From a virus (Duplodnaviria; Heunggongvirae; Uroviricota; Caudoviricetes): DNA of 25,992 nucleotides. Made by a program: the position numbers. How positions within the stretch are numbered: position 1 is the stretch's first letter; every line of letters starts with the position of its first letter. Positions 20,101 through 23,100 of the stretch are shown here, piece by piece. The stretch lies in IMG/VR virus record IMGVR_UViG_2563366804_000005; one strand, given 5' to 3'.

Positions 20101-23100
20101 CAGGCTGGATCTGGTGTTTGATACCGATCCGGCCTGCGATAAAGGAGGTGGTAATGCTGAAACAGAACGCGTGGTTTCGCGGCGAACCGAAGGCCAGTCT
20201 GAAGAATAATTCCTGGTTCAGGATGAAGGCGCGTCATAAAAGTGACGCAGATATTTATATCTATGACGAGATTGGTTTCTGGGGAGTTACGGCGAAGCAG
20301 TTTGTTAGCGATCTGAATGCGCTGGGTAATATCACTCACATTAATCTCCATATCAATTCACCGGGTGGCGATGTCTTTGAAGGCATCGCCATTTTTAATG
20401 CGCTGAAAACACATGGTGCGTCCATTACCGTTTATGTCGACGGTGTGGCGGCATCAATGGCGTCGGTCATTGCGATGGTGGGAAACTGCCTGCCGTGGCG
20501 GTGTGGCTGAGTGATGCTCAGTACACCGGAAAAATGACGGATGAAGATGACTGGCAGGCTGTTCTGCATATTGCCGTCTTCATCCGGGCACAGGCACCGG
20601 ATTCAGAGCTGGATATGTGGATGGAGAGCACCATTTTCCCTGCCCTGAATGATATACCGGCACTTTCCGGACTCATCGACACCCTGATCCCACTCGGTTT
20701 TAACTATCAACGTGATAATGAGATGGCCACCTGGGCGATGGCGGAAATCACGTACCAGATCACGTACACGAATTAAGGAGGTGGTAATGACCACACCAAA
20801 TCCACTGGCAAAGACGAAAGGTGCGGGGACGACGTTCTGGATGTATACCGGCAACGGCGATGCGTTTGCGAACCCTTTGTCGGACACTGACTGGCTGCGT
20901 CTTGCGATGGTGAAGGATCTGCAACCTGGCGAAATGACCGCTGATGCAGAAGATGACACTTATCTCGATGATGAAGATGCAGACTGGAAAACGACAACCC
21001 AGGGGCAGAAATCCGTTGGTGATACTTCGGCGACGCTGGCCTGGCGTCCGGGTGACAGCGGGCAGAAAAAACTGGTTCAGTTGTTCGACTCCGGTGAAGT
21101 CTGCGCGTTTCGTATCAAATATCCCAACGGCACTGTTGATGTTTTCCGTGGCTGGCTGAGCTCACTGGGTAAAACCATTGCCTCAAAAGACGTGATGACC
21201 CGCACTGTGAAAATCAGCGGTGTGGGGCGTCCGTATCTGGCAGAGGAAGGCACTGAAACCGTGAGCGTTACCGGGCTGACAGTATCACCGGCGTCTGCCA
21301 GTGTAAAAGTGGGAGCAACCACCACGCTGACCTTTACAGTAAAACCTGACGGAGCCAGTGACAAAGCGATCAGTGTGCATTCGTCAGATCCACAGACTGC
21401 CACGGTTACCCTGAACGGACTTGTGGCCACGGTAAAAGGCGTGAAGCAGGGCAGTGTCAGCATTGTGGGCATGACCGCTGACGGGAATTTTGTGGCTGTG
21501 ACTGCGGTGACTGTCAGCGCAGCAGGTTAACAGGACGATACTCATCATTTGCCCCGGTTATGCGGGGCTTTTTTGCAGGTGGAGAACATGATGTTTCTGA
21601 AACAGGACACGTTTAATTATGAAAAACAGTCCGTGGTGCTCAGTGAGCTGTCCGGGCTGCAGAGAATTGAATATCTGACGTTTGTTCAGCAGCGAACGGC
21701 AAAGTTTGATGCCGGGGAGGGAGAACTGCCGGAGGCTGAACGACAGATTGCTTTTCTGCGGATGGGGATGGATATCAATGCCTGGCTGGTTTCCCGCTCA
21801 CTGTGGAATGCGGATCAGTCTAAGGATGTAGAGACGCTTTGCGCATCCGTTATTACAACATGGTCGTATGATGCCCTGGGTGCGGGGGCGGAGATGGTTC
21901 TGTCGCTGAGCGGTATGGGGGCCATTGATAATGCCGTGGATGATGAGCATGAGGCGCTGACGCCGGAAAAGTCCTGACGCGGGAAATGCAGTTTGTCATG
22001 CGGCTTGCCCGGGAGTTCCGGCGGGCAGACTGGCGGCGGATGCTGTCGGAAATGTCGGCCACTGAGCTTGGTGAGTGGGGCGATTATTTCCGGATGCAGA
22101 GCTTCAGTGATGTGTGGATGGATGCGCAGTTTGCCTCGCTGAAGGCATTGATCGTGAGAATGGTGTCCGGCAGCAGTGATGCTGCGGTGGCTGATTTCAG
22201 TCTTTTACCGGAAGAGAACGGGATACCGGAGCGAACGGACGAAGAACTGATGCATCTTGGGGAAGGTATTTCCGGAGGTGTGCGTTATGGACCAGATAGC
22301 CAACCTGGTCATTGATTTGGGGATTGATGCGGCAGAGTTTAAAAATGAAATTCCCCGTATCAAAAACCTTCTGAATGGTGCAGCCAGCGATGCAGAACGG
22401 TCTTCTGCCCGTATGCAGCGTTTTATGGAGCGTCAGACTCAGGCCGCCCGGCAGACAACGCAGGCAGCTTCTTCGGCTGCAACAGCCGCATCCGTCCATG
22501 CGCAGACGGTGGAGAAGAACGCACAGGCTCATGAACGCATGGCCCGCGAGGTGGAGAAAACCCGCCAGCGCATGGAGGCACTGAGCCAGAAAATGCGCGA
22601 GGAACAGGCGCAGGCCATGGCTCTGGCGGAGGCTCAGGATAAAGCGGCTGCTGCGTTTTATCGTCAGATTGACAGTGTGAAACAGGCCAGTGCGGGGCTG
22701 CAGGAATTACAGCGTATTCAGCAGCAGATCCGACAGGCCAGAAACAGTGGCGGGATTGGTCAGCAGGATTATCTGGCGCTGATTTCTGAGGTTACTGCGA
22801 AAACCCGTGTTCTTACACAGGCTGAGGAAGAGGCTACCCGACAGAAAGTGGCGTTTATCCGTCAGCTTAAAGAGCAGGCAACCCGCCTGAATCTTTCATC
22901 TTCTGAGTTGCTTCGTGCTAAGGCAGCCCAGCTGGGGGTAAGCAGTGCTGCAGAAGTGTATATCCGCAAAATGGAGCAGGCAGGAAAAGCCACGCATTCG
23001 CTGGGTCTGAAGAGTGCAGCAGCCCGCCAGGAGATAGGCGTTCTGATAGGTGAACTGGCCCGCGGCAATTTAGGGGCGCTGTGGCAATATCAGCGACAAA

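Follow-up and report, generated by a model that had tools for sequence, protein, structure and literature searches.

The window, by which we mean the whole 25,992-nucleotide stretch of viral DNA analyzed here, carries in the overlap of its tail genes G and T what is, with a probability of about 0.8, a programmed −1 ribosomal frameshift site of the lambda-type G/GT pair, in its common GGAAAAG form and surviving as an intact relic. The GGAAAAG frameshift site is already known, and it is an ordinary one, not a defect. The preliminary description had left a choice between a non-canonical site and an impaired fusion; the first of these was borne out by the analysis, whereas the second found no support.

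Geometry of the G/T overlap

The two chaperone reading frames overlap and are flanked by the genes for the major tail tube and the tape measure, all on the plus strand, in the order V (20787..21530), G (21588..21977), the T frame extending to 22315, and a tape measure remnant starting at 22287. The 5′ neighbor of G is the homologue of lambda V, with matches to Pfam PF16461 (Phage_TTP_12, E = 5e-67) and Big_2; the mEp460 record calls it a major tail protein, and RefSeq a phage tail protein. A consensus scan located, at 21551..21574 between V and G, a hairpin resembling a terminator (GCCCCGGTTATGCGGGGC, then TTTTTT); the records of mEp460, Ayreon, and N15 label its counterpart a rho-independent terminator. 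G, read in the 0 frame, encodes a tail assembly chaperone of 129 amino acids that ends with ...HEALTPEKS* and matches PF06894 (Phage_TAC_2, E = 3.8e-40, 137 bits against a cut-off of 27). In RefSeq the gene is called 'gpG: phage tail assembly chaperone G', and its start is set to the second ATG, 21591.

The T part of the GT fusion (21971..22315) lies in the −1 frame and comprises 114 residues, starting with VLTREMQFVMRLAREF and matching PF06223 (Phage_tail_T, E = 4.4e-15, 56.3 bits against a cut-off of 25.9). Since the −1 frame is closed upstream by a TGA at 21950..21952, 5′ of which no shift can be productive, it is open only from 21953, and it ends with the stop at 22313–22315. The 3′ limit is the G stop, TGA at 21975..21977, one codon past the slip site. 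The overlap is thus 21953–21977, 25 nt long, with the 0-frame codons GAG GCG CTG ACG CCG GAA AAG TCC TGA; these coordinates, the −1 relation of T to G, and the length of the overlap, all put forward in the preliminary description, were reproduced by reading and translation. The slip site G_GAA_AAG occupies 21965..21971, with the P-site codon GAA at 21966–68 and the A-site codon AAG at 21969–71, and is read as GGA AAA in the −1 frame. Translation predicts a GT fusion of 128 + 114 = 242 residues with the junction ...ALTPEK|VLTREM....

Direct reading of the 25-nt overlap revealed no X_XXY_YYZ heptamer, the pattern in which both tRNAs retain their non-wobble pairs in the −1 frame; the first three positions of GGAAAAG are G, G, and A. 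The earlier statement that GGAAAAG, at CCG GAA AAG, stands in place of the lambda heptamer holds. The codons GAA AAG (21966–21971, G frame) conform in turn to the NNA_AAG hexanucleotide, reportedly described as a −1 frameshift motif by Licznar et al. in 2003. The change from AAG to AAA is the sole cognate −1 re-pairing among the 0-frame codons of the overlap. Alternative slip sites within the 25 nt were ruled out, with no other 0-frame codon re-pairing in the −1 frame, and the +1 frame is open only at 21961..22065, where nothing conserved is encoded. The window contains five copies of GGAAAAG against 5.2 expected; occurrence alone is thus uninformative, and the significance of the site derives from its frame, its position, and its conservation across phages.

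Conservation of the heptamer in lambda-type junctions

A set of 35 non-redundant lambda-type G/T junctions, less than 90% identical to each other, was compared. GGAAAAG is found in 29 of them, GGGAAAG in three, GGCAAAA in two, and GGGAAAA in one. Positions −4, −3, −1, 0, and +1 never vary, and +2 is occupied by G in 32/35. The wobble G at −4 is present in all 35 junctions, over seven different preceding codons; codon usage would give a G fraction of 0.42 per site and a product over all sites of 1.5e-14, a value that assumes independence and overstates the significance, since the junctions are mutually related. Where the P-site codon specifies Glu, it is GAA and not GAG in 29/29 cases (58% GAA in the bodies of the G genes), and the A-site codon is AAG in 32/35 (36% in the gene bodies), whereas other upstream third-codon positions carry merely 0.01–0.17 bits. 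Judged from these sequence comparisons, purifying selection acts on the silent sites of GGAAAAG. Exchanges between GGA and GAA have taken place at least three times: in the lambda clade, in junction L153, and in junction L150, the nearest relative of which, at 77% identity, has GGAAAAG.

In each of the 45 distinct junctions inspected, T occupies the −1 frame. The peptide read in this frame shows no conservation 5′ of the heptamer in the 35 junctions and is conserved from the heptamer on, as GK[VA]L..EL.F..LAREF. A methionine preceding the LAREF motif is present only in the clade of the window and in one other junction, which means that no independent T start is conserved.

Lambda itself shares with the window the pairing of PF06894 with PF06223, the gene order V-G-T-H, the −1 direction of the shift, the A-site AAG, and the homologous position of the site; the lambda G/GT frameshift at G_GGA_AAG is said to have been established by Levin, Hendrix and Casjens in 1993. 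About 4% of ribosomes shift in lambda, and the ratio of G to GT matters (PMC3296357; PMC5009743). The two sites differ by one base in the P-site codon, GGA (Gly) in lambda and GAA (Glu) in the window, so that the junction is Gly-Lys in the former and Glu-Lys in the latter. The substitution makes the −1 re-pairing near-cognate in the window, with a central G·U pair, and leaves it cognate in lambda. The non-canonical site is homologous in position to that of lambda, represents the majority motif (29/35), and is invariant at its silent positions.

Another match is provided by N15, in which genes 14/15 (as well as their counterparts in phi80, HK225, and LLS) are homologous G/T genes with T in the −1 frame, a T part about 44% identical to that of the window, and G_GAA_AAG at the homologous position. 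The GenBank records of N15 and LLS annotate exactly GGAAAAG as a −1 slippery sequence, and the LLS record includes a joined CDS; the non-canonical site was thus on record already. N15 and its relatives have GCG or GTG as the codon preceding the slip site, and their G stop lies five codons past it; CCG precedes the site in the window, mEp460, and the Gifsy clade, where the stop follows after one codon. Gifsy-1, Gifsy-2, and Fels-1 retain AC[GA] CCG GAA AAG [TC]CC TGA, although their flanks are just ~69% identical.

It could be supposed that GGAAAAG is a decayed lambda heptamer that supports an impaired fusion or none at all, with T either unused or produced alone from the ATG at 21986. The non-canonical heptamer, the poor performance of AUG GAA AAG as a shifter in vitro, the decay of the prophage that carries the site, and the presentation of T as a separate CDS from ATG 21986 in several annotations, including RefSeq and mEp460, would agree with such a reading. 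However, the isolated phages mEp460, cdtI, Tritos, and Ayreon, which have a named propagation host, possess the same junction (97–99.8% identical), and GGAAAAG is the majority form, with purifying selection at silent sites. ATG 21986, in turn, is found only in the clade of the window and one other junction and is not conserved across junctions, whereas GKVLTRE, a conserved stretch of the T-frame peptide, is encoded 5′ of it; to judge from the sequence, GGGAA abuts this ATG with no spacer, which is unfavorable. We consider an impaired fusion very improbable.

Another reading places the slip in transcription: RNA polymerase would gain or lose one A within the A4 run, and the fusion would be encoded by the mRNA so changed. 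Productive slippage of RNA polymerase needs runs of roughly seven or more A or T, and the run here consists of just four A. Although a homopolymeric A run is present, and some tail-chaperone and secretion-system genes do use slippage (PMC5009743), reaching the T frame would require the deletion of one A or the insertion of two, and the conserved G_G and terminal G suit tRNA re-pairing instead. This explanation is hardly credible.

Proposed re-pairing at the slip site and possible stimulators

In the reading that we prefer, programmed −1 frameshifting on the ribosome, most ribosomes translating G would read ...CCG GAA AAG TCC TGA and terminate, yielding the 129-residue G, while a small fraction would slip by −1 with tRNA-Glu on GAA in the P site and tRNA-Lys on AAG in the A site. 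The tRNA-Lys (anticodon mnm5s2UUU) would re-pair perfectly with AAA, and the tRNA-Glu (anticodon mnm5s2UUC) would be held on GGA by two Watson–Crick pairs and a central G·U pair. After the slip, GTC CTG ACG ... would be decoded, giving the 242-residue G-T fusion (...TPEK-VLTREM...). The binding partners of the fusion in lambda are the tape measure protein for its G part and the tail tube protein for its T part. Whereas geometry, family membership, and conservation of the heptamer, silent positions included, can be read directly from the sequences, we infer from them that slippage occurs at all, how efficient it is, and that two tRNAs re-pair.

The second-position G·U pair that the P-site tRNA-Glu would form with GGA in the −1 frame is also pointed out in PMC6924986, where AUG GAA AAG gave mainly the 0-frame product in a reconstituted system and was called unfavorable for slippage on account of a second-position mismatch. 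In the dnaX context in vivo, A_GAA_AAG supported 20% frameshifting, compared with 57% for G_GGA_AAG and 81% for the wild type (Tsuchihashi data, PMC6787027). An A_AAG tetramer with no stimulator reached 0.147% in an E. coli reporter, barely above the background of 0.112% (PMC4066793). The motifs listed by PRFect include a 'twofour' type, XXYYYY, and re-pairing of tRNA-Glu from GAA to GGA via G·U is put forward there (PMC10885494). The searchable literature yielded no frameshifting measurement for GGAAAAG in a G/T setting, and full-text searches returned no paper discussing a GGAAAAG site in phage tails. Ribosome biophysicists use GGAAAAG as an 'unfavorable' comparator to GGGAAAG.

Tentatively, GGAAAAG might be the preferred natural G/T slip site of enterobacterial lambda-like phages, by virtue of a P-site tRNA-Glu that tolerates the central G·U pair; we regard this as possible rather than probable. 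If true, it would account for the invariant silent G at −4, and the upstream Shine–Dalgarno (SD)-like element would perhaps contribute to slippage. Both of the slipping tRNAs contain mnm5s2U34, and in that case the G:GT ratio would depend more strongly on the 2-thiouridine (Tus/MnmA) status of the host than it does in lambda. The gain would be a small refinement of the rules of bacterial −1 frameshifting and no new mechanism.

A variant of ribosomal slippage dispenses with tRNA-Glu. In it, tRNA-Lys alone would re-pair from AAG to AAA, either in the A site or in the P site with TCC waiting, as in NNA_AAG motifs, and both the preceding G and the re-pairing of tRNA-Glu would be irrelevant. The NNA_AAG motifs of B. 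subtilis cdd (A_CGA_AAG) and IS1222 (G_CGA_AAG) resemble the window in the proposed movement of tRNA-Lys from AAG to AAA after an NNA codon; they support −1 shifting at a low, context-dependent level that varies with the wobble of the P-site tRNA (PMC5009743). Likewise, A_GAA_AAG, with poor re-pairing of tRNA-Glu, still gives the 20% quoted above, and two relatives have G_GCA_AAA_TAG, where P-site re-pairing would be poor. Position −4, however, is silent in G and lies 5′ of the translated T, yet it is G in 35/35 junctions over seven codons, while adjacent silent positions are free, as expected if a G:C first-position pair is needed in the −1 P-site codon. The base preceding the hexamer in the window is this invariant G, unlike in the NNA_AAG motifs, and it would restore first-position pairing in the P site, so that in behavior the site falls between a hexamer and a full heptamer. 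Slippage of tRNA-Lys alone is rather improbable, though the strongest of the alternatives.

Backward motifs that depart from XXXYYYZ are also found in other tail chaperone overlaps, namely GGGGGAA ('fivetwo') of actinobacteriophages and the PRFect 'twofour' XXYYYY, for which tRNA-Glu re-pairing from GAA to GGA via G·U has likewise been proposed (PMC10885494). Unlike the site in the window, they belong to other hosts and gene families, and GAA in GGGGGAA is the A-site codon; PMC10885494 states that experimental tests are lacking for all of these sites.

E. coli dnaX, with A_AAA_AAG, an upstream SD, and a downstream stem-loop, shares with the window the A-site AAG, and GAGG in the window (21951..21954), a possible stimulator 10 nt upstream of the heptamer, falls inside the 6–17 nt range of SD-like stimulators (PMC4066793). 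GAGG may assist the slip, for which downstream RNA structure is apparently unneeded. In the 35 junctions, SD-like pairing is enriched 6–10 nt 5′ of the heptamer (23–37% at ≤ −5 kcal/mol compared with 6% background), although this figure is confounded by a conserved Glu codon. No more than about one junction in three shows the signal, and GAGG at 21951–54 overlaps the Glu codon. Unlike dnaX, the window has a weak SD-like element that is not family-wide and no supported downstream stem-loop, and a few per cent of frameshifting would be expected, compared with ~80% for dnaX.

Folding of 21972–22060 (89 nt) as a single sequence gave z = −0.82, no better than shuffles, and a 60-nt downstream window in the 35 junctions gave a mean z of −0.61, with four below −2 and 0.19 for the representative of the clade of the window. 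A search of Rfam with 21400–22400 returned no match above chance level and no frameshift element. A stable, conserved stem-loop or pseudoknot of the dnaX type, 5–9 nt downstream, is thus not supported. In an RNAalifold prediction from four members of the clade, the main pairing joined the slip site itself, CGCCGGAA (21961–68), to TTCCGGCG (22016–23, the EFRR codons of T); this pairing was rejected because its geometry is wrong for a stimulator and because it is impossible in relatives with GCG or CTG as the preceding codon.

State of the prophage and consequences for annotation

The tape measure gene is reduced to its N-terminal ~265 codons (22287..23084) and is marked in RefSeq as partial, with the C terminus missing; in mEp460 the gene is 3066 nt long, and homology to intact phages stops near 23084. 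With 20700–24700 as a query, all but two identical E. coli genomes match bases 1–2385 only. Other genes of the prophage, including those of the portal and the terminase, are also partial. The prophage is decayed, and a tail cannot be built from this copy, whatever the slip site can do; as most tail-building genes are lost, the slip site is here an intact relic. The decay of the surrounding prophage had been overlooked in the preliminary description.

The value of the site as a discovery is small, and three modest uses can be named. The first concerns annotation: RefSeq/PGAP and several phage records present G and T as separate genes and omit the fusion, in a region with matches in over 2,600 of the 5,426 complete E. 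coli genomes, and searches limited to X_XXZ_ZZN, such as the enterobacterial scan of PMC4066793, cannot detect the site. The second is one of perspective, the textbook heptamer of lambda being the minority in its own family (3/35 compared with 29/35). Finally, the site offers a natural test case for the cost of a second-position G·U pair in the P site during −1 slippage, a parameter that is explicitly poorly constrained in the thermodynamic model of PMC6787027.

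The G/T overlap and its probable slip site

The G-like ORF (21588..21977, + strand), a gpG-family member like that of lambda (PF06894, 137 bits), ends with GAG GCG CTG ACG CCG GAA AAG TCC TGA, and the T ORF is a member of the lambda gpT family (PF06223, 56 bits). On one side of the pair lies a tail tube gene of lambda type (PF16461 plus Big_2), on the other a tape measure gene. On reading and translation, the T frame (+ strand), which is -1 relative to G, has a TGA at 21950-21952, is open from 21953, ahead of the G stop, and terminates at 22313-22315; every coordinate that the preliminary description gives is confirmed. 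Since the -1 frame opens at 21953 and G ends at 21977, a productive shift is indeed confined to 21953-21977. Direct reading also bears out GGAAAAG (21965-21971) instead of the lambda heptamer, and no X_XXY_YYZ heptamer was found on re-reading 21953-21977. The sole codon there able to re-pair cognately in the -1 frame is AAG (21969-21971, to AAA), located inside GGAAAAG. This heptamer occurs five times in the window against 5.2 expected, a count that is not unusual, so its meaning must come from context.

In the GenBank record of N15, the annotation 'slippery sequence for -1 translational frameshift' covers 10027-10033, which is GGAAAAG; that of phage LLS has a joined CDS annotated with 'minus-one programmed translational frameshift site GGAAAAG'. 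At the matching place, phi80 and HK225 have GCG GAA AAG. PRFect lists the XXYYYY backward motif among annotated tail-chaperone frameshifts (PMC10885494), and the Atkins 2016 review covers NNA_AAG sites and hexamer/heptamer intermediates, G_GA included (PMC5009743). Annotation and motif catalogues, at the least, thus already include the site: GGAAAAG is both a known kind of site and a known heptamer.

Conservation among related junctions

Over 0.9 kb, the region is 97-99.8% identical in the deposited phages mEp460, cdtI, Tritos, Ayreon, HannyBb, PhiR55_1 and phi458, for which propagation hosts are named, and about 69% identical to Gifsy-1, Gifsy-2 and Fels-1; the Gifsy records already describe T as a product of translational frameshifting. 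The junction AC[GA] CCG GAA AAG [TC]CC TGA is common to mEp460, Ayreon, Gifsy-1, Gifsy-2 and Fels-1 despite diverged flanks. Further loci were gathered with an alignment of the T domain, from IMG/VR and from a single genome for each bacterial species, yielding 45 distinct junctions, all with T in the -1 frame, which were reduced to 35 non-redundant ones (<90% mutual identity over 123 nt). The comparison of related G/T junctions proposed in the preliminary description gives, at the homologous position, GGAAAAG in 29/35, GGGAAAG in three (lambda and one prophage each from E. albertii and Edwardsiella), GGCAAAA in two and GGGAAAA in one, making GGAAAAG, not lambda's GGGAAAG, the family norm. The homology is seen when lambda (TCT GCG GGA AAG TGT TCG ACG GTG AGC TGA) is aligned with a Trabulsiella prophage (TCT GCG GAA AAG TCC TTG CCA GTG AGC TGA). 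At least three exchanges between GGA and GAA are seen: in the lambda clade and in two other related loci, L153 and L150, the closest relative of the latter (77%) carrying GGAAAAG.

The wobble base of the codon preceding the P-site codon (position -4) is G in 35/35 junctions and is kept in all seven codon contexts (GCG, CCG, CTG, GTG, ACG, TTG, ATG); codon usage predicts 0.42 per site, and the product over all sites, 1.5e-14, overstates the significance, as the sequences share ancestry. All 35 P-site codons end in A, and the A-site codon is AAG in 32/35, although AAG accounts for only 36% of the Lys codons within the bodies of these G genes; the remaining upstream third-codon positions carry 0.01-0.17 bits. 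The T-frame peptide is unconserved upstream of the heptamer and reads GK[VA]L..EL.F..LAREF from it onward in 35/35. The distance from slip site to stop is 0, 1 or 5 codons depending on the clade, so stop proximity is no conserved requirement.

This pattern fits purifying selection on a functional slip site, as judged from the aligned junctions, and not decay. That the fusion is impaired, or that T is translated independently from the ATG at 21986 annotated as its start in several records, is unlikely: isolated phages share the same junction, silent sites are conserved, and this ATG is found only in the clade of the window and one other junction. The observation of the preliminary description is confirmed and its interpretation partly supported, in that the site is non-canonical, with its silent positions kept, and evidence of impairment is absent.

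In five relatives (L095, L097, L150, L119 and L154), a 0-frame stop directly follows the slip site; the junction of each lies some 30 nt 5' of its position 1501. The variants are G_GCA_AAA_TAG (Kluyvera, Ewingella), G_GGA_AAA_TAG (Providencia rustigianii) and G_GAA_AAG_TAG (Providencia), which suggests a variant where slow termination at TAG may aid slippage of tRNA-Lys. Gifsy-1 (L002, 1896-1901) has a second in-frame GAA AAG (AGT GAA AAG GAC), eight codons upstream of the conserved one; it sits exactly at the -1 frame opening, overlapped by the -1 TGA, so that shifting at this point would be productive too. Lambda-identical junctions (L136-L148, 38% identity matches) come from contigs that are short, have low coverage and belong to unrelated genera (Kitasatospora, Shewanella, Oceanobacillus, Paenibacillus, Enterococcus and others); they look like contaminating lambda DNA in the assemblies, not real prophages.

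Proposed slippage and candidate stimulators

While the analysis establishes site geometry, homology and conservation, the movement of the tRNAs can be proposed as follows. In the A site, tRNA-Lys would slip from AAG to AAA, which would be favourable since mnm5s2U prefers A to G as its pairing partner (PMC6787027). In the P site, tRNA-Glu would re-pair from GAA to GGA, keeping the first and third positions and forming a central G.U pair. Re-pairing of tRNA-Glu from GAA to GGA through G.U is also proposed in the PRFect paper (PMC10885494). The main argument for participation of the P-site tRNA, which we infer, is the invariant silent G at -4, left unexplained by slippage of a single tRNA, a less likely alternative. 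Transcriptional slippage on the run of four A is very unlikely. With its invariant -4 G, the site lends itself to a clean natural test of how far a second-position G.U pair is tolerated in the P site when ribosomes slip by -1.

With dnaX as the context, in vivo frameshifting was 20% for A_GAA_AAG, 57% for G_GGA_AAG and 81% for the wild type (data of Tsuchihashi, tabulated in PMC6787027), and G_GAA_AAG should be at least as good as A_GAA_AAG because the first-position pair is restored. With lambda at ~4% (PMC3296357), rough scaling would put GGAAAAG on the order of 1-3%. Counting against this estimate, AUG GAA AAG gave mainly the 0-frame product in a reconstituted system and was termed unfavourable (PMC6924986), and a bare A_AAG in an E. 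coli reporter was close to background (PMC4066793).

Folding of the window's junction and of the 35 junctions, and an Rfam search of 21400-22400, supported no RNA structure downstream of the slip site. A perfect 8-nt complement exists between CGCCGGAA (21961-21968, + strand, slip site included) and TTCCGGCG (22016-22023, EFRR codons of T), and is paired by RNAalifold in the four clade members tested. As a stimulator it was rejected, since its geometry is wrong and it cannot form in relatives with another preceding codon; the complementarity is probably coincidental. A Shine-Dalgarno-like GAGG (21951-21954, + strand) lies upstream of the heptamer with a 10-nt spacer. Across the 35 junctions, such pairing to the 16S 3' end (<= -5 kcal/mol) is more frequent at 6-10 nt upstream of the heptamer (23-37%) than in the G gene bodies that serve as background (6%). 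A conserved Glu codon at -18..-16 confounds this enrichment, and the element is missing from many members, N15 among them.

Prophage state and neighbouring features

The window is 100% identical to a prophage adjoining potB in E. coli O27:H7 B4103-1 (18096-25992 corresponding to 3397-11293 of the locus L165). This prophage is heavily decayed. The genes that RefSeq gives as partial are those for the large terminase, portal, ClpP protease, gpU, tape measure and a tail protein (about 23156-24553), along with two tail-fibre assembly fragments; V, G and T are intact. Homology to the tape measure stops near 23084, a truncation present in 2/5,426 complete E. coli genomes, 2,657 of which match part of the region. 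The frameshift site in the window is a relic, well preserved although no tail can be built from this copy, which is another kind of impairment than the one the preliminary description had in mind.

Three neighbouring features were recorded. A 490-aa ORF (23081-24553, + strand), with no match in Pfam, lies 3' of the tape measure truncation and overlaps the RefSeq partial phage tail protein, whose N-terminus is missing. Between V and G, a strong terminator-like hairpin GCCCCGGTTATGCGGGGC followed by TTTTTT (21551-21574, + strand), annotated likewise in mEp460, Ayreon and N15, could reduce how far G, T and H are transcribed compared with V; if true, this would control stoichiometry at a second level. 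A class I SAM-dependent methyltransferase gene (25001-25669, - strand), wedged among tail-fibre assembly gene fragments, looks like a cargo (moron-type) gene at the prophage end.
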